NCBI GenBank assembly: GCA_964541375.1
Contig: CAZIPT010000004.1
Span: 1-60,052 of the forward strand
Source: an uncultured Eubacteriales bacterium
Lineage (GTDB): Bacteria; Actinomycetota; Coriobacteriia; Anaerosomatales; JAAXUF01
Length of the DNA stretch: 60,052 nt
Direction of reading: 5' to 3'
Part shown: one piece after another, positions 1 through 34,961 of the stretch
Layout: each line of letters begins with the position of its first letter
Numbering within the stretch: the stretch's first letter is position 1
Translations under genes and position numbers: made by a program
The notes under the pieces: model-generated
The model's database searches: none
What the model was told of the DNA's origin: nothing
The model's input: the letters and a program-made list of their open reading frames with translations, nothing else

Positions 1-2
1 TC

Positions 3-125
3 AAGCGGCTGGGCGCGCACGTGACCATCACCGCGGCAGGCTACGGCGGTGCGAGTCCCGTGGCCTCGAACAACTCCAAGTCGGGTGCAGCGAAGAATCG
101 CCGAGCAGAGCTGCTACTGAAGTAG
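3..125 (+). CDS. OmpA-like peptidoglycan-binding domain protein, 3' end only (runs off window)
   Basis: Manual translation KRLGAHVTITAAGYGGASPVASNNSKSGAAKNRRAELLLK* matches the OmpA C-terminal GYG..P.ASN....G...NRR.E motif. Confidence 0.8.
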   Translation, partial: KRLGAHVTITAAGYGGASPVASNNSKSGAAKNRRAELLLK

Positions 126-173
126 CTTTCCGGCGGACAGTATCGGGTGTGCCCTTGACCCGAGAACCAGGAA

Positions 174-206
174 GGGCCGGCGGGGGAGCGAAGTCCCCGC
201 CGGCCC
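174..206. terminator. GC-rich hairpin, probable terminator
   Basis: Perfect 12-bp inverted repeat GGGCCGGCGGGG/CCCCGCCGGCCC between the OmpA-like gene and the partial tRNA copy. Confidence 0.65.
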
Positions 207-218
207 GCTGCTGTTCCT

Positions 219-263
219 TGGTGCCCCCGAGACGATTAGAACGTCCGACACCAGGTGTAGGAA
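219..263 (-). repeat. att-like duplication of the 3' part of tRNA-Arg(CCT)
   Basis: 43/45 identity to 3648-3692 (mismatches at 238 and 257); identity ends exactly at the anticodon-loop boundary. Confidence 0.92.
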
Positions 264-359
264 GCTAACTAGTCGTGGTTCCGATGGTCGCTGCTGAGTG
301 CGCATGGTGCCGTTCAGCCTTGCCGATGAGCGCAGTCAGCTCTGGTGGATCACGGCCAA

Positions 360-381
360 TCCGTGGCAGATCAGTAGCAGA
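360..381 (+). repeat. Tandem 11-bp repeat, putative integrase arm-type sites (left end)
   Basis: TCCGTGGCAGA-TCAGTAGCAGA; CAGATCAGTAGCAGA at 367-381 is identical to 3564-3578. Confidence 0.6.
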
Positions 382-395
382 CGGAAGGCTGGCCT

Positions 396-3353
396 CTACC
401 TCACGGTGACGATCTTGGTGACCGGACCGCTGTTCGTGTAGTCGGTTCCGGTGTAGGAGATCGACATCTTCCACTTGCCGGCCGTCTTGGGCTTGTAGCG
501 ATAGGACAGATAGCCGTCGGAGGCTCGCCCGCTCATGGTCTTGGTGGTGACGGTCTTGTAGTAGGTCTTCTTGTAGTGGATTGTCCTGCGACGAATCCTC
601 CTGTGTGCGGTCACGGTCACTCTGCGAGACAGCGTGATCGTGGCGGTACCCGCTCCCGCAGCAGCTGGTGGCGAGATGTGTCCGTGGAAGGTCGCGTACT
701 TGCCGTGGGTGGGGCGGGAAGATGCTGCGGGTTCAAAGAGCGCTGTGATCGCGGCGAGACTGACATCCAGTCGCGTCGTGGCACCGGCAGTCGTGGCTAC
801 CAGCCGGGTGGCGGGGGCGTATCCAGACATGGAGAAGGTCACCCTATGTGTTCCCGGAGCCACACCGGCAACCGAGTAGGTCCCGTTAGCCTCCGTGCTG
901 GCCAGCGGGCATTCCGGCACAGAGACCGAAACCCCCGCGAGCGGGTTGCCGCCCCAGGTTACCCTGCCCTGCAAGGTGCCGCCATCGACGAGGAAGACGT
1001 AGGTGTTTATGCCCCCGATCAGCGTGCTGCTCTGGGACCCTGTGTTCACAGAGTCGGCCATCTGGCTGTCAGCGGCGAAGGCGTACAGGACGTGCACTCC
1101 GAGTTGCAGCGGCTGCGTGATGCCGCTCCGTGTCGCGCCGCTGCCAGTCGCCTTGAGCCAGGCGCCCTGGACTGTGTCCACTTGGTAGTAGATGTCGCGT
1201 ACTGATGGCGCGTTCGGGGCGAAGGCGCTTGCGGCCGTGAAGGTGAATGTCGGGTTGGGTGAGGAGGTGCGGTCCGAAGGCAGAGGCGTGATGGCCACCG
1301 TCAAGGGCACCGGCTGTTCATTCTGCTCGTCGATGACGGTGACGTCGTGACTGCTGTAGTTCACGACATAGACCCTGTTCGTCACCGGGTTGACCGCAAG
1401 GCTCAGGGGATTTGTCCCCACCGCGACAGTGGTCACGGCGCTGGTGATCCCGTCGACGACGTTGACGTTCGTTGTGTCCGTGTTGGCGACGTAGACCTTG
1501 TTCGACACGGGGTTGACGGCGACGGCAGCCGGATACGCCCCCGCCGCGACCGTGTTGGCTGCGTTCGTGGCCCCGTTGATCACCGTGACGTTGTGGCTCG
1601 CCCAGTTGGTCACGTACACCGTGTTCGTCACAGCGTTGACAGCCACGTCGCTGGCACTGCTGCCGACCGGGACCGTGCTGGGGCCGTTCGTGGCCCCGTT
1701 GATGACTGTGACCGTGCTCCTGTTGGCGACGTATATCTTGTTGGTCACCGGGTTGACCGCCACGGCCTCGGGATTCGTCCCAGCCGCAACCGTGCTGGTT
1801 GCGTTGGTGGCGCCGTCGATGACGGTGACGTTGTTGCTACCCCGGTTGGCGACGTAGACCTTGTTCGTCACGGGGTTCACCGCCACGGCCCTCGGGTTTG
1901 TCCCGGCTACGACTGTGCTGGTGGCGTTCGTGGCCCCATCGATCACGGTGACGTTGCGGCTGCCATAGTTGGCGACGTAGACCTTGTTCGTCACGGAGTT
2001 GACCGCGATAGCCTGTGGATTCGTCCCGGCTGCGACTGTGCTGGTGGCGTTCGTGTCCCCGTTGATCACCGTGACATCGTGGCTGTTGTAGTTCGCGACG
2101 TAGATCCTATTGGTCATTGGGTTGACCGCCACGGCCTCCGGGCTCGTCCCTGCCGCAACGGTATTCACAGCGTTGGTGGTTCCGTCGATGACCGTGACGT
2201 CGCTGCTACCCCGGTTGCCGACGTAGATCTTGTTCGTCACAGGGTTGACTGCGATAGGACGCGGACTCATCCCTGCATCCACCGTACTCCTGGCGTTGGT
2301 GGCACCGTCGATCACGGTCACGTCGCTGCTGTCACGGTTGGCCACTTAGACCTTGCCGGTCACGGGGTTGACAGCGACGCCGTATGGGCCGTCCCCGGCT
2401 CCGACAGTAGAAGCCGTGTCCGTCGCTCCGTCGATCACCGTCACGTTATCGCCAAAGAAGTTCGCCACGTAGATCCTGTTGGTCGACGGGTTGAGACCCA
2501 CTGACCACGGTGTCGCCCCTGCGACGACGGTAGTCAGGACGTCATCGGCGTCTCCGTCGATGACTGTCACGTTGTTGTCACCCTGGTTCGCCACGTAGAT
2601 CTTGTTTGTCACAGGGTTGGCGGCCAACGCTCTGGGCCGATAGCCCGTGGAGACCTTGCCCACTGTGAGATCGCTCGCCCCGTCGAGAACAGACAGGACG
2701 TCGCTGTCGTAGTTCGCTACGTAGACCTTGTTGGTCACGGGATTGATGGCCAAAGCGCAGGGCGTCGTTCCAACGCCGATGTCGACAGTGGAGTGCAGTG
2801 CGCCGTCGATTACCGTCACCGACATCCCGTTGTAGTTGGCCGTGTAGATCTTGTTGGTTAGCGGGTTGACGGCGACGGCACTTGGATTCGTTCCAACAAC
2901 GATTCTGGCGGTTGAGTTACTGGAGCCGTCGATCTCGGTCACGCTGGAACTCATGAAGTTGGCGACGTAGATCTTGTTGGTCACGGAGTTGACGGCCAGG
3001 GACTGCGGGCGCGCCTCGACAGCCACGGTGACGACGGAGTTGGTGGCGCCATCGATCACAGATACGGTGTCGCTGTCTTTGTTGGCCACGTAGATCTTGT
3101 TGGTCACGGAGTTGACGGCGACTGCCCAAGGTTGCGACCCAACAGCAATGGTCGCCGTGGTGTTGGCAGCGCCATCGATCACCGTGACGGTCGAGCTGGA
3201 GTAGTTGGCCACGTAGACCTTGTTGGTAACTGGGTTGACCGAAGCGGTCCAAGGAAAGGTCCCGGCCGGCACTGCTAGCACACTCTGTGCGGCCCCGAGG
3301 ACGAAGGCGACGACCAGCACTGGCAGAACTACCGTGCGGAGATACCCATTCAT
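396..3353 (-). pseudogene. Secreted YncE/YVTN-type beta-propeller protein (16 repeats) with carboxypeptidase-regulatory-like domain and basic C-terminal domain; in-frame TAA at 2346-2348
   Basis: ORFs 2346-3482 and 396-2345 abut in the same frame; KV*VAN replaces the repeat consensus KVYVAN; ATG 3353 with GAAAGGGG RBS and a signal peptide. Confidence 0.85.
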
Positions 3354-3556
3354 CACCGTTCCCCTTTCGGCGTGTTTCGGTCGGCTTTCCCTTCGCTTTG
3401 AACGCCAACGGCACGACGACGAGGATTCGTTGCGGGAGCACGCCGAGGCGCGAGCATCACTTTGTCGCGAACGCCCTCTCACATGAAGGGAGAAGGCTCA
3501 TCCGCATACTAGTTTCATACCCGCCGCTCAATCCCCGCCCCGCTTCGGTCCTGGAC

Positions 3557-3578
3557 TCAGTATCAGATCAGTAGCAGA
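3557..3578 (+). repeat. Tandem 11-bp repeat, putative integrase arm-type sites (tRNA end)
   Basis: TCAGTATCAGA-TCAGTAGCAGA, 70 bp from the tRNA 3' end. Confidence 0.6.
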
Positions 3579-3647
3579 GGTCAACCAGCCCCCACAACAG
3601 AACAGGCCAGCCAGGGCGTGAAACCCTCGCTGACCTGCTGTTTTCTG

Positions 3648-3723
3648 TGGTGCCCCCGAGACGATTCGAACGTCCGACACCAGGTTTAGGAAACCTGTGC
3701 TCTATCCCCTGAGCTACGGGGGC
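3648..3723 (-). tRNA. tRNA-Arg(CCT)
   Basis: 76-nt cloverleaf GCCCCCG...CGGGGGC-ACCA; anticodon arm CAGGT-TTCCTAA-ACCTG; GTTCGAA T-loop. Confidence 0.97.
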
Positions 3724-3924
3724 GAATGGTGCCCCAACGGGGCAGTCGGTATTGTAGCGCGACGCCTACGGTTCTGGGAGACGGAGCCGGCGGCGGTGGC
3801 CTATCTTCACACGCAGCAGACGCGCGGGCGTTGCGCGCATCGCTGTAGCGGGTACGCACATCGAGTAGGAGGCCGTCTGCTCGCCTCCTTCGATCCGGCG
3901 ACCCCTGAGAAGGAGTAGAGAGTC

Positions 3925-4296
3925 ATGAAGCTCAACAAAGCGCTCGCGGCTGGCCTGCTGCTCGCACTGGTCCTCGCCCTCGTCGGCTGCTCAGGCAGTG
4001 GCGCCACATCGAGCCCGCCGTCCAGTGGAACCGCCCCCGCGAGCACGTCTGCCGCCGGGGCAACAGTCGTCGAGAAGGGCTTCGCGTTCGACCCGGCGAC
4101 GCTCGACGTCAAGGTGGGCGACACGGTCACCTTCAAGAACGAGGACTCGGCACCACACAACGTGAGCATCGACGGCAAGGAGCTCGGCAACCAGGATCAG
4201 GGCGCAAGCGTCACCTGGACCGCCGAGAAGGCCGGTTCGTTCCCGTACTCGTGCACCATTCACCCGGCGATGACCGGTGAGATAGTCGTCAAGTAG
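3925..4296 (+). CDS. Cupredoxin (plastocyanin/azurin family) lipoprotein
   Basis: Lipobox LVGC; type-1 copper ligands HN...CTIHPAM. Confidence 0.9.
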   Translation: MKLNKALAAGLLLALVLALVGCSGSGATSSPPSSGTAPASTSAAGATVVEKGFAFDPATLDVKVGDTVTFKNEDSAPHNVSIDGKELGNQDQGASVTWTAEKAGSFPYSCTIHPAMTGEIVVK

Positions 4297-4320
4297 CGGG
4301 CGCGACCGGAACGGAGCGTT

Positions 4321-4986
4321 GTGGACACCAGCCTTCTGCTCTCGCTTGCATTGATCGCCCTAGGTATTGCCGCCAACCCTCCTGGCATCGTCGTGCAGAT
4401 CGGTGTCTTGTCGACGCCGAACGGTCGCACCAAAGGGCTCGTATACCTTGCGGGGCTTCTGGTGTCGTTGGTTGCGTTCGCTGCTCTGGCGGTAGCCATC
4501 TTTGGCCGATTCGATCTCTCGACAAAAGGAACGCCCACCACTGCCGCGTACGTGATACACCTCATCGCCGGGTTGATCGTCGTCGGGGCGGGGATCTGGC
4601 TCTGGCGTCAGCCAGCGCAGGCGGTGGGTGGGTTCATCGGAAAGGCACTGGAGGATCTGGGCACGATAAAGCTCGGCACGGTGTTCCTGCTGGGCTTCCT
4701 TCTGGTGAACTACCCCCTCGAGATCGCCGGCGCCACGACCATCCTGCAGGCGAAGCCCCCAACCACGGGTGCCGCGATCGCCTACTTCCTCTACTTCGTC
4801 ATCATTGCGAGCTCGACGATCTGGCTGCCCGTCGTCATCCAGATGGCCGCCGCCGGCAAGTGGGACGACTGGTCGACGGCGTCCCGCACTTGGATCGTGA
4901 AGGACGGCAATGTCGTTTTGGGCGCGCTGATACTGGTAATCGGAGTCGCGATTGCAGTGCAGGCGGCGCTTGCACTCATCAAGTAG
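4321..4986 (+). CDS. GAP/Sap-like integral membrane protein
   Basis: About 6 hydrophobic helices; N-terminal ALGIAANP and late W...DGNVV pattern resembling the GAP family. Confidence 0.65.
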   Translation: MDTSLLLSLALIALGIAANPPGIVVQIGVLSTPNGRTKGLVYLAGLLVSLVAFAALAVAIFGRFDLSTKGTPTTAAYVIHLIAGLIVVGAGIWLWRQPAQAVGGFIGKALEDLGTIKLGTVFLLGFLLVNYPLEIAGATTILQAKPPTTGAAIAYFLYFVIIASSTIWLPVVIQMAAAGKWDDWSTASRTWIVKDGNVVLGALILVIGVAIAVQAALALIK

Positions 4987-6216: not shown

Positions 6217-7335
6217 CTACGGCGTCCCAGTCCCCACGCCAGCAAGCGCCGACCACGCGCCGGCCTTGGTCCCCGGCCAGCTGTAGAGGCTCGCGCCAAT
6301 GCATCCGCTCTCCTGAGTGCCGCGCACAAACGCCTGGACTTCGGCGGTCGAGGACTTCTCGGCGATGCCGCCGATCATGTGGATCGGGACAGCCGAGCAT
6401 CCCGGCTTCGAGCGCAGGATGCGGGCGTTGCCGACCGTGTCCGAGTACGAGAGTGCCGCGCCCTTGCCGTGGTAGGTGTAGTAGCCCATCGGCACGAAGA
6501 CGTCGTAGATAGGCGCTAGGTCGGTGTAGGGAAAAGTACCCCAGTAGCTGCCCTTCCTCGAGAGACCAACGGGCGATGGAATGATGGCGCCGAGAGGATA
6601 CGCCGGCCCTACCGCTGCGCGAATCTGCCGGGAGAGCGCCATCAGTGCGCGGTTGCGCGGCTTCTGCGACTTGATGGCGCCCGACTCGATGTCCAGCGCG
6701 AACGAGTCGAACCTCTGACCGTCGCTTGTTTGCAGCTGAATCGCCGAGTTGATCCGGGAGAAGTCCTTTGCCGGGTCGATCATGTCCGGCAGGTACCAGG
6801 CAACGATCTTCATGTCGTGCGCGTGCGACTCGCTGATGAACTGCTTGATCTTCTCGGGTTTGAAGAGCTCGCCGCTGGATCGCGAGTTGCCGGTTTCGAG
6901 GTAGAGCGTCTTGACCCCGTGAGCGGCCATGTCGGCTACGGCGGCAGCCGGATCCTTCCAAGCGCGGTCGTCGTAGATGTCCACCCAGCTGCCCAGCCCG
7001 CGGTACGCGCCGATTCGGGTTTGAGCCGGAGCCGGAACAGGCGTCGGAGCGCCGGGGGCAGGGGAGGGGGCGGGGGCGGTCGCGACCGGCGTCGCCGTCG
7101 GCAAGGACGGGGCCGAGGAGGTCCAGCTCGGCTGGGCGCTGTGCGACGCGGAGCTCGCGGTCGGAGAGGCCTCGATAGGTGCCGAGGTGCTCGGCGTCGA
7201 TGACGTGCCGCGCGAGTTGCCTTGGCTCAGCGCGTAGACGCCGACGCCTGTGCCGATCAGCACGATGCCGCCAACCAGGAGGCCCAGCCCGAGCATGACG
7301 AGCTGTCGTCCTGACAGTTGGGGCAGTGCCGGCAT
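6217..7335 (-). CDS. Membrane-anchored putative glycoside hydrolase (TIM-barrel-like)
   Basis: ATG 7335 with GAGGAGG RBS; TM helix, Ser/Pro/Thr linker, then domain with FALDIES and VFVPMGYY motifs. Confidence 0.6.
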   Translation of the reverse strand: MPALPQLSGRQLVMLGLGLLVGGIVLIGTGVGVYALSQGNSRGTSSTPSTSAPIEASPTASSASHSAQPSWTSSAPSLPTATPVATAPAPSPAPGAPTPVPAPAQTRIGAYRGLGSWVDIYDDRAWKDPAAAVADMAAHGVKTLYLETGNSRSSGELFKPEKIKQFISESHAHDMKIVAWYLPDMIDPAKDFSRINSAIQLQTSDGQRFDSFALDIESGAIKSQKPRNRALMALSRQIRAAVGPAYPLGAIIPSPVGLSRKGSYWGTFPYTDLAPIYDVFVPMGYYTYHGKGAALSYSDTVGNARILRSKPGCSAVPIHMIGGIAEKSSTAEVQAFVRGTQESGCIGASLYSWPGTKAGAWSALAGVGTGTP

Positions 7336-33695: not shown

Positions 33696-34961
33696 TTACC
33701 TCGCGGTAAACGACTTGGCGCCCGAGGTGCACGGTTCGTAGACCGCCGATCCAGCGTAGCTTGCCACCATCTTCCACTTCCCGGAGTACGGCAGCTTGTA
33801 CGAAAGCGTCAGGCGTCCGTCGGCCGCGGCGCTCATGGGCTTGGTGGCCCGCAGTCGCCAATACTTGACCTTGACATTCTTCATCTTGCCTCGGACCCGC
33901 TTCTTGACGGTCTTTGTCTCGTACCGGTAGAGGGCGAGGTTGGTGCTTCCCGCAGTTGCCGCCGCCCCGGGAGTCAGAGATGCCGAGAAGATGGCCGACT
34001 TGTGGTGCTTCGGAGTCGATGGGGTGACGCTCGGCACTGACAGAGCAGCTACCTGCTTTGCGGTGATTGTCGGCGGTGGTGGCGTGCCGAAGCGAAGGGT
34101 AATCGTCTTGGCGTCTTCGACATTGCCGTCGTTGTCGACCGACCAGTAGGACACGTTGGTTACGCCCGGTACGTACGCGAATTGAACCGGGGCCGTGTAT
34201 TTGGTCGTCGTGCCGGTTCCGATGCGATAGTAGATCGTCGGCGGCAGGCCGGTGTTGTCGGTGGCACTCATTGCCAGTGCGACTGGCCACTGTACCCAAC
34301 CGCCGGGGTAGCCCGTGACCGTTGTGACCGGCTTTATGTCGTCGGGCGGGCCCAGTTCGACGAGGTCCCAGTAGGACAAGCGCTCCTTGTAGAGGTCGCC
34401 CCCCTGGGTCCTGAGCCAGATGCGCACGGCGCCTGCGTTTGCGGGAGCGGTTGCGGTCAACCTCATCTGGGTCCACCCGTTGCCGTTCACCCCAAAATCA
34501 CTGCCAAGACAGGCGGTGGAACCGAGGGCGTTGCCGCCCACTTTCGTTAGAAACTCCATGTAGGCGACGGTTGCGTCAGGAACGTTGCTCTTTGCCCATA
34601 CCTTCAGTCGTATCGGCTGTCCCCCCGGTATCGCCACATCTTGCATGACCGATCCGTACCAGGTGATGTCCACCCACGGTACGAACTGCTTCGAGGGCAC
34701 GGCCGTCCTGACACACTGAAGTCCATGGTGGATCGGGTAGACATCGATGAGGCTAACGCGCTCTCGGTCGTTGTACGGCCATAGCGCAGGAAGCGACGGA
34801 TTCGCCCCTGCTTGCTCGAAGCTCGGATTCTCCACGACGTAGGCGAACGCCGACGGCGCCGCTGCGAGTCCGATGATGAGCGCGAGCGCGAGACCTATCA
34901 TCACGCGCGATCCCCGGGAGCGCGGTACCTCCCAACCATGATCCAGCCTACTTCTGTTCAT
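33696..34961 (-). CDS. Secreted protein: CBM4/9-like domain, Ig-like domain, Lys/Arg-rich C-terminal domain
   Basis: GGAGGGAGG RBS; signal peptide ending AFA; NPSFE...YWDLVEL; YWSVDNDGNVE. Confidence 0.78.
   Translation of the reverse strand: MNRSRLDHGWEVPRSRGSRVMIGLALALIIGLAAAPSAFAYVVENPSFEQAGANPSLPALWPYNDRERVSLIDVYPIHHGLQCVRTAVPSKQFVPWVDITWYGSVMQDVAIPGGQPIRLKVWAKSNVPDATVAYMEFLTKVGGNALGSTACLGSDFGVNGNGWTQMRLTATAPANAGAVRIWLRTQGGDLYKERLSYWDLVELGPPDDIKPVTTVTGYPGGWVQWPVALAMSATDNTGLPPTIYYRIGTGTTTKYTAPVQFAYVPGVTNVSYWSVDNDGNVEDAKTITLRFGTPPPPTITAKQVAALSVPSVTPSTPKHHKSAIFSASLTPGAAATAGSTNLALYRYETKTVKKRVRGKMKNVKVKYWRLRATKPMSAAADGRLTLSYKLPYSGKWKMVASYAGSAVYEPCTSGAKSFTAR

Follow-up and report, generated by a model that had tools for sequence, protein, structure and literature searches.

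At the tRNA-Arg(CCT) gene near the left end of a 60,052-nucleotide stretch of DNA from an uncultured Coriobacteriia-type actinobacterium—hereafter the window, which is the entire contig C4 (CAZIPT010000004.1) of assembly GCA_964541375.1—lies a small element that, judged by its sequence, is an integrase-less, att-flanked derivative of a tyrosine-integrase island and resembles a cis-mobilizable element (CIME). This reading follows from a crossover within the anticodon loop, arm-type words that match those of related elements, and an integrase-bearing island at the same site in a genome of the same genus (G003). The element is probably by now an immobile remnant of an island that had integrated at this anticodon loop; from the observations below, we infer both the deletion of its integrase gene and its present immobility.

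The source genome is metagenome-assembled (2.18 Mb in 107 contigs, 81% complete), and window position 1 is a contig end. Like the in-frame stop codon and the second direct repeat (360–381/3557–3578) described below, this contig end had not been part of the preliminary description of this DNA. The source DNA is present in four runs from one study of rock and groundwater metagenomes, whose Logan contigs were compared; runs X1, X2 and X3 belong to one study and may include the source sample. Relatives, labelled with G-numbers, are genomes of the same order, represented by 146 genomes counting the source (145 others). G001, G002 and G003 share the genus of the window genome, and G005 its family. 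The element has a GC content of 61.8% against 64.7% for the genome, and is bounded by the tRNA gene and a displaced copy of the 3' half of this gene:

3648–3723, minus strand: intact tRNA-Arg(CCT) gene (ARAGORN; Rfam tRNA, 62.7 bits).
3648–3692, minus strand: right repeat copy, the 3' 45 nt of the intact tRNA gene; putative attL core.
3686–3692, minus strand: anticodon loop, the presumed overlap region.
219–263, minus strand: displaced 3' half of tRNA-Arg(CCT), positions 32–76, with two substitutions; putative attR core.
174–206: perfect 12-bp hairpin (inverted repeat I19) between the OmpA-type gene of the left flank and the displaced half.
3608–3632: hairpin with a 9-bp stem and one mismatch, just past the tRNA 3' end, as read from the sequence.

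The 45-mer at 3648–3692 and its copy at 219–263 are identical in 43 of 45 positions and lie in the same orientation at a spacing of 3429 nt. They cover tRNA positions 32–76, from the complete 7-nt anticodon loop through the 3' half to the CCA end, and open, on the tRNA strand, with the loop bases TTCCTAA (positions 32–38). None of 100 shuffles contained a second match. The preliminary description had already claimed this duplication and its sharp end at the anticodon loop, and both are borne out by ARAGORN, Rfam and the shuffles. It had also placed the mismatch at 257 inside the crossover heptamer, correctly so: this base is tRNA position 38, the final base of the loop. The second mismatch, at 238, falls into the T loop. 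When compared with the tRNAs or tRNA copies of 15 relatives, both substitutions are found in the left copy alone. A weak likeness extends a few bases into the trailer (repeat family D6, 46/50). The proposed search for more copies of the 45-mer in the genome returned only these two; a third is absent from the 2.18-Mb assembly at up to three mismatches. Logan contigs of runs X1–X3 span both junctions (87–396 and 3090–3702) with zero differences, and since these junctions and the in-frame TAA are reproduced in all three runs, they are not artefacts of this assembly. The hairpin at 174–206 is probably the original tRNA trailer and terminator, shared with the convergent gene; trailer-plus-hairpin layouts like it are seen after the tRNA or its copies in relatives. 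The hairpin at 3608–3632 belongs to the trailer and terminator that the element brought, and homologous layouts align between the window, G005, G037e1, G136 and G025 (alignment A1).

The relatives narrow down the site of strand exchange. The tRNA gene was located by DNA search in 38 of 40 relatives, many of which bear partial copies kilobases away, and the boundaries of these were mapped by blast with the tRNA against fetched loci. Copies of the 3' half span positions 32–76 in seven cases from six relatives (G003, G012, G014, G019, G025 and, twice, G037); against a uniform start at position 32, two 3'-half copies of G011 begin at 27–28. Copies of the 5' half span positions 1–38 in five cases (G006, G011, G018 and, twice, G014), and three further ones were trimmed by blast (G033, 5–38; G012, 5–39; G017, 5–36). 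The two repeat types meet solely in the loop, at positions 32–38, which therefore places the crossover inside the 7-nt anticodon loop. Strand exchange at tRNA-Arg(CCT) thus takes place within the anticodon loop, and in this order the gene is an insertion hotspot. Tyrosine-recombinase integration at the loop, as the preliminary description had presumed, is supported by the position-32 starts of seven copies in relatives and with arm words placed as in integrase-bearing relatives. Among the islands catalogued by Islander, anticodon-centred attP sites are given as the commonest class (2083 of 3919), with 3' fragments in 3760 islands and 5' fragments in 159 (PMC4383910).

What lies next to the tRNA varies strongly. 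Its 3' flank differs in each of the genomes examined for this (G001, G002 with two copies, G004, G005, G007, G010 and G013); hence, no clean empty site can be defined. An OmpA-type gene was not seen beside the tRNA in any of the genomes examined. The comparison with relatives called for by the preliminary description thereby yielded islands with other cargo or an integrase at the same tRNA, but no clean empty site. The right flank of G001 is partly syntenic with the window (homologues of g6217, g8192, g9066 and g10282 at 46–67% identity), and G001 shows neither a tRNA-half repeat nor arm words.

Further arrangements were observed at this gene. G012:C6 (L039–L041, 796–873 kb) bears islands on both sides of tRNA-Arg(CCT): upstream, a 5'-half copy lies ~42 kb off and an integrase gene sits directly upstream of the tRNA; downstream, a 3'-half copy lies ~34.7 kb off and a partial integrase gene directly follows the tRNA. 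G014:C1 (L055–L057; 31.8, 54.4 and 81.4 kb) carries two 5'-half copies and one 3'-half copy and has no full-length blast match to the window tRNA; an element may have provided its functional tRNA gene with a diverged 5' half. G002 bears two full tRNA-Arg(CCT) genes with near-identical trailers, each near a contig end (L026 = G002:C5 and L027 = G002:C1), one of which adjoins a 1041-aa Big_7/F5_F8_type_C surface protein.

Inside its ends, the element carries a second direct repeat, which is built from short tandem words and has a counterpart in the G037 element G037e1:

360–381, minus strand: distal (P) arm, two tandem 11-nt arm-type words (repeat family D9).
3557–3578, minus strand: proximal (P') arm, two tandem 11-nt arm-type words (repeat family D9).
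G037e1, words on the tRNA strand: P' arm GATGCTACGGA and ACTGCTACGGA; P arm TCTGCTACGGA and AATGCTACGGT.

On the tRNA strand, the P arm of the window reads TCTGCTACTGA and then TCTGCCACGGA, starting 118 and 107 nt upstream of the displaced half, and the P' arm reads TCTGCTACTGA and then TCTGATACTGA, starting 70 and 81 nt after the tRNA 3' end. The direct repeat of 360–381 and 3557–3578 matches in 19 of 22 positions, 15 of them exact; the 15-nt exact match to 3564–3578 beats all 300 shuffles, which reach a maximum of 13. Were the element circularised at the tRNA repeat, the two copies would flank the core. Both arms lie ~105–126 nt from the loop, and the attP deduced from them is therefore roughly symmetric.

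This architecture recurs in relatives, for which 260 nt inside each end of seven elements were compared. Six of the seven show shared direct words at +59 to +81 past the tRNA and, ahead of the displaced half, 105–140 nt upstream. In the seventh, G019, the two ends have a 22-nt word in common, located at +60 and 161 nt upstream. Tandem word pairs 11–12 nt apart are present in both arms of five (G012, G025, G037e1, G037e2 and the window), although each pair of the window has a second word that departs from the common spelling. In position and spelling, the window arms are like those of G037e1, G025, G011 and G136, with invariant word columns (alignments A1 and A2). The pattern TGCTACKGANNTGCTACKGA, allowing up to one mismatch, has 10 sites in 6 of the 146 genomes of the order, compared with 4 for the reversed control. 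Nine of these 10 lie beside tRNA-Arg(CCT) 3' sequence, and the tenth is the distal pair of G005.

Across these elements, the spelling of the words seems to track the integrase clade: the integrases of G037e1 and G025 are 41% identical and go with the word TGCTACGG, those of G037e2 and G012 (52% identical) go with words that differ from the TGCTACGG type, and those of G003 and G019 (38% identical) with yet other words. By analogy with attP sites of the lambda type, we regard the words as putative binding sites for the arm-binding domain of the integrase. In the literature searched, the word TGCTAC(T/G)GA was not found together with the term 'arm-type'. The arm word of G003:C109 (L028:174–206 and 7253–7290) is a different one, with repeats of GTGGACAG 11 nt apart; presumably, it is similar to the word found at the arm sites of the integrase of a well-studied temperate coliphage. 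In the window, a 10-nt arm-word match, CTGCTACTGA, is seen at 111–120 (plus strand) at the end of the OmpA-type open reading frame (ORF); it points the other way from all arm words, and its distance from the left repeat is atypical. Since it spells Leu-Leu-Leu codons, it is probably a chance match.

In relatives, integrases accompany such arms. On G003:C109 (7395 bp), a 3'-half copy at 11–55 and the tRNA, which starts at 7332 and is cut by the contig end, enclose a 7.3-kb island. Its 391-aa integrase (PF00589 at 2.6e-20, plus Phage_int_SAM_3) is directed towards the tRNA and stops 113 nt short of the 3' end of the latter. G003:C120 begins within the tRNA and continues into the same cupredoxin flank as the window. 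G003 thus harbours a different, integrase-bearing island at the same site and with the same right flank. A PF00589 gene is also found at the tRNA-proximal end in G037e1, G037e2, G025, G019:C8, G136 and, as a partial match, G012; in G037e1, an HTH_17 gene stands beside it, and the integrases of G037e1 and G136 are 62.5% identical over 184 aa.

The window interval, on the other hand, has no PF00589 match, and tblastn with nine island integrases at E up to 20 gave noise only and no integrase remnant in 264–3647. Two tblastn matches at 3578–3709 are an artefact, as the query ORFs of G037e1 and G025 run across the tRNA. The search of the genome for a tyrosine integrase, as proposed in the preliminary description, gave none of the island kind: PF00589 occurs in only two genes of the whole assembly, both of Xer type, on C3 and C24 (157.7 and 154 bits). 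One of them reaches the NF001399 tyrosine-recombinase cut-off but narrowly misses those of the XerD and XerC equivalogs; the other shares its Xer-like build. The island integrases are only 24–43% identical to these two, and the XerD-type gene of the assembly is closest to metagenome-assembled genomes labelled Coriobacteriaceae (66%) and Coriobacteriia (57%). An integrase of the matching clade was not found in the 81%-complete assembly. The pattern leading from the P' word to the tRNA 3' end occurs in the window only among the 146 genomes of the order, with 0 hits in metagenome_contigs and 0 in genome_contigs.

Integrase-less units with the same word type are not confined to the window. In G005, a P' pair of perfect words comes after the tRNA, then one DUF4352 gene and, 1243 nt from the first, a second perfect pair; past this second pair there is no tRNA-half copy, and an EamA gene ends there. 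G011:C24 holds 5.15 kb between two 3'-half copies, with both word pairs and a cargo of a LuxR-type regulator, an rve fragment, a cytochrome c3-type protein and an FAD_binding_2 protein, without a PF00589 match. On G019:C6, the tRNA copy is truncated right against a word pair. Taken together, an integrase adjoins this word type in three cases (G037e1, G136 and G025), none does in three (window, G005 and G011), and one case is a fragment. Stacks of two to three units at tRNA-Arg(CCT) are present in G037, G011, G019 and G012.

The cargo of the window element is a single gene:

396–3353, minus strand: sole cargo gene, a secreted YVTN-type beta-propeller repeat protein of 985 codons (from ORFs, repeats and profile matches).
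2346–2348, minus strand: codon 336, an in-frame TAA in place of the Tyr found in other repeat units.

That the interval holds only one surface-protein gene had been stated beforehand and stands: apart from the YVTN gene there are five small ORFs in the spacers, without a Pfam match at E<=1. The gene is read as two contiguous ORFs in one frame (396–2345 and 2346–3482). It bears 16 repeat units of ~123 nt (repeat family D2), matches TIGR02276 YVTN with 139 and 155 bits as well as Pfam NHL, Lactonase, YNCE and CarboxypepD_reg, and ends in a lineage-typical C-terminal domain. The codon right after the TAA is GTG, and the 649 codons downstream are open. The stretch with the TAA is identical in contigs of runs X1, X2 and X3; hence, the nonsense mutation is genuine and no error of the consensus. 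The closest full-length relatives of the cargo are a paralogue on contig C7 of the same genome (51% over 979 aa) and a protein of G029:C7 (56% over 435 aa in the best segment), and a search of genome_contigs for an orthologue in another context gave only one distant locus (45% over 141 aa). Promoter and terminator scans of 1–4400 performed no better than on shuffles.

One X2 contig omits exactly 123 nt (2965–3087), i.e., one propeller unit, with a shorter side of 255 nt; this may reflect a population variant that lacks one blade, or else a collapse during assembly. The last ~110 aa of the YVTN protein (399–730) recur in at least seven other open frames of the genome at 33–44% identity (window 33747–34067 and contigs C1, C5, C11, C25 and C28), and perhaps represent a lineage-specific envelope-anchoring domain.

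These features can be assembled into a probable history, the simplest one, in which 264–3647 together with the bounding repeat would be the leftover of a genomic island. The attP of its circular form would have run from the P arm over the core to the P' arm: two 11-nt words ~105–118 nt upstream, a copy of the tRNA from the anticodon loop to CCA plus the trailer hairpin, and two words 70 and 81 nt beyond the tRNA end. Strand exchange in the 7-nt loop would have rebuilt the tRNA with the 3' half of the element (3648–3692) and displaced the original 3' half to 219–263. The integrase gene—with any excisionase—normally sits just inside the P' arm and is transcribed towards the tRNA; it would later have been lost, leaving one YVTN surface-protein gene between two complete-looking att sites. 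Subsequent drift would then have brought two substitutions into the displaced half, including the one inside the overlap heptamer, as well as the nonsense codon into the cargo and the changes into two of the four arm words. Such an element would be immobile on its own, and the cognate integrase of a sibling could at most excise it.

We favour a fossil because of the heptamer mismatch, the nonsense codon and the two deviant words, and because neither a sibling nor an excised form was found: the empty-site joint (263 to 3692) and the circle joint are both missing from the Logan contigs of the four runs, although contigs miss rare excised forms. A deleted island remnant had been one of the two options of the preliminary description. 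It is backed by the integrase-bearing elements at the same tRNA in relatives and by the decay of the window element, while a counterpart with the same cargo and an integrase was not found in any relative.

Several points weigh against the favoured reading. The deletion is deduced rather than observed, since the same cargo did not turn up alongside an integrase in any relative or metagenome contig, and neither did the same arm-plus-core spelling. A cognate integrase could reside in unassembled DNA. The run comparison used contigs only, which are blind to rare excised forms, and 218 nt separate the left repeat from the contig end. In addition, three integrase-less loci with kept word pairs exceed what simple decay leads one to expect, and the arms could have been kept since such units are still in use. 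Finally, the second word also varies in the integrase-bearing G025, which makes the deviant words of the window weak evidence of decay.

An unlikely alternative is that the 3.4-kb unit is a working non-autonomous mini-element, a full attP with one cargo gene, whose integrase and excisionase are encoded elsewhere and act in trans, or in cis after a sibling has docked alongside, as in CIME-type accretion. Both att cores and all four arm words stand at family-typical positions, integrase-less units with conserved word pairs recur (G005 and G011:C24), tandem stacks exist in G037, and the word type has living integrases in G037e1 and G136. However, the mismatch at 257 lies in the 7-nt overlap, and tyrosine recombinases normally need identity across the overlap. 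The cargo is a pseudogene in all three runs that cover it, no matching integrase was found in the assembly, and the contigs of the four runs, which miss rare forms, contain no empty-site or circle joint. The arm-plus-core spelling occurs nowhere else among the 145 other genomes of the order, genome_contigs and metagenome_contigs, and the siblings themselves look fossil-like, with a G005 unit lacking a tRNA-half copy and a truncated copy on G019:C6. The element mobilised in trans that the preliminary description had offered as its other option thus found no positive support: the 81%-complete assembly yielded neither an integrase of the matching clade nor a third 45-mer. In a broader and rather improbable version, a two-tier system would operate at tRNA-Arg(CCT), with a few integrase-bearing drivers that have TGCTAC(T/G)GA arms (G037e1, G136 and G025) servicing integrase-less cassettes, of which the window cassette would have been disabled recently. 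If this were true, a cassette would consist of a complete attP and one or few cargo genes, often for envelope or redox proteins, and its arm words would be held by selection via exchange in trans.

A longer tandem array past the contig end, of which the window element would be one unit, with the OmpA-type gene in an older element and a further tRNA-half upstream, appears distinctly doubtful. The array of surface-protein cassettes suggested in the preliminary description likewise gains no support from this contig, which stops 218 nt beyond the left copy. The stacks of two to three units in G037, G011, G019 and G012 are a precedent for it, the trailer and hairpin of the left copy resemble post-tRNA trailers in relatives, and the 10-nt match at 111–120 could be taken for an arm word. 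Yet this match has the wrong orientation, lies at +99 instead of +60 to +81, and is part of coding sequence (Leu-Leu-Leu-Lys); the assembly contains only two copies of the 45-mer at up to three mismatches; and the OmpA-type gene has two chromosomal paralogues (756/781 aa), which fits an ordinary resident gene. That there is no integration scar at all—the repeat being a coincidental likeness, a locally duplicated tRNA region or the product of a chimeric contig—is very improbable. The region does lie at a contig end of a genome in 107 contigs, and variant contigs match 1–210 with 7–17 differences before they diverge. Against this stand the absence of a second match in all 100 shuffles, a left copy that differs by two bases and is hence no collapsed repeat, contigs from separate runs of the study that bridge 87–396 and 3090–3702 with 0 differences, and a position-32 boundary and arm words that match integrase-bearing elements elsewhere. 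An integron cassette, an insertion sequence or miniature inverted-repeat transposable element and a segmental duplication were dropped, as no attC-like site, terminal inverted repeat or target duplication was present and the ends match integrase att arms.

Two genes flank the element within the window:

3–125, plus strand: last 40 codons and TAG of an OmpA-type peptidoglycan-binding protein gene that is truncated by the contig end; left flank, outside the element.
3925–4296, plus strand: cupredoxin gene, right flank outside the element (Pfam Copper-bind/Cupredoxin_1).

An OmpA-like gene with its own hairpin had been described beyond the element. The 12-bp hairpin at 174–206 is indeed there, and the gene is a fragment of 40 aa without a Pfam match; its matches to NCBIfam OmpA/MotB-type models (E 1.5e-6 to 8e-3) all remain under the cut-offs. 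The fragment is homologous to the C-termini of the two paralogues of 756/781 aa, which carry PF00691 and lie on contigs C18 and C25. Next to its tRNA, G003:C120 has a syntenic gene with which the cupredoxin shares 79% identity over 96 aa. Variant contigs of window 1–210 are present in all four runs; they carry 7–17 differences, and their match ends just before the left tRNA-half. One of them (X1, 1007 nt) runs on into YVTN-like repeats on the opposite strand. These variants could derive from a related strain, a paralogous locus or a graph artefact.

The arm words are also found outside the order. The exact pair TGCTACTGANNTGCTACTGA turned up at 50 loci of genome_contigs and in at least 118 metagenome_contigs stretches; from these, 130 loci were analysed (L064–L193, with L064–L113 from genome_contigs). 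None of the loci analysed adjoins tRNA-Arg(CCT), and they point to a wider use of the word, with no bearing on the window element. Of the 50 genome_contigs loci, 23 are labelled Acidimicrobiaceae or Acidimicrobiales. JBKQUM010000113.1 (L070/L071) shows two units 1519 nt apart, a unit consisting of the word pair, 103 nt, and a 43-nt repeat that opens with a Lys(TTT)-type anticodon loop, and in five loci a tRNA-Lys(TTT) lies 1.0–1.4 kb from the pair. In another class, the same arm word seems to serve integrases that target other tRNAs.

In this reading, a tRNA fragment and a strain-specific, broken surface-protein gene are explained as traces of island traffic, and tRNA-Arg(CCT) stands out as the main hotspot for flexible genes in an uncultured order of subsurface actinobacteria. 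The analysis provides an attP model with a 7-nt loop crossover, paired 11-nt words ~105–126 nt to either side and a spelling that follows the clade. It also shows that, for this word type, units with full arms but no integrase occur about as often as autonomous ones, which means that pipelines demanding an integrase, such as Islander, will miss them. CIMEs, tandem accretion and degenerate island remnants have been described before, and current concepts stay unchanged; the attP model and the frequency of integrase-less units are useful detail and no new principle.

In the lambda, P2 and HP1 type of tyrosine-integrase attP, core sites are accompanied by arm-type sites on both arms. The window element shares with these the tandem direct words on both sides of the core, ~105–126 nt from the crossover, whose spelling co-varies with the clade; unlike them, its words are putative arm sites.

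A close parallel is the CIME, defined in the ICEberg 2.0 description as an att-flanked, integrase-less unit (PMC6323972). As outlined there for the CIMEs of the ICESt1/ICESt3 family in Streptococcus thermophilus, the window element is flanked by putative attL and attR sites and holds cargo only, without genes for integration or transfer; and as with CIMEs, autonomous relatives use the same att site and tandem accretion takes place at this site in relatives (PMC6323972). Relatives with the same crossover and an integrase of their own are G003, G012, G019, G025, G037 (two) and G136. Recombination or transfer genes are absent from the cargo, which is the YVTN gene alone. The att sites retain both cores and all four words, the cores differing in 2 of 45 positions (one in the overlap) and two of the four words deviating. 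Unlike CIMEs, whose parents are integrative and conjugative elements, the parents here are small tRNA-targeting islands in which no conjugation genes were seen in the stretches examined. The host, an uncultured actinobacterium, is a further difference, as are the mismatched att core, the pseudogene cargo and a mobilisation that is putative.

With the class A islands of Islander, the element has in common an intact tRNA gene plus a direct 3' fragment, a crossover in the loop and a tRNA restored by the element (PMC4383910). Unlike these, its interval is devoid of an integrase, which Islander, by its published description, demands in the interval, so that the window element would be filtered out (PMC4383910). 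Degenerate remnants with partial tRNAs are reported at the tRNA hotspots of Prochlorococcus (10.1101/2020.12.28.424599). The tycheposon-shaped islands of this genus are similar with regard to repeated integration, older elements that are pushed outward and the loss of hallmark genes (10.1101/2020.12.28.424599). In contrast to tycheposons, integrase and replication modules are absent from 264–3647, and the phylum differs. Whereas the Prochlorococcus remnants are characterised in that account as having no clear boundaries (10.1101/2020.12.28.424599), both att arms of the window element are still recognisable.

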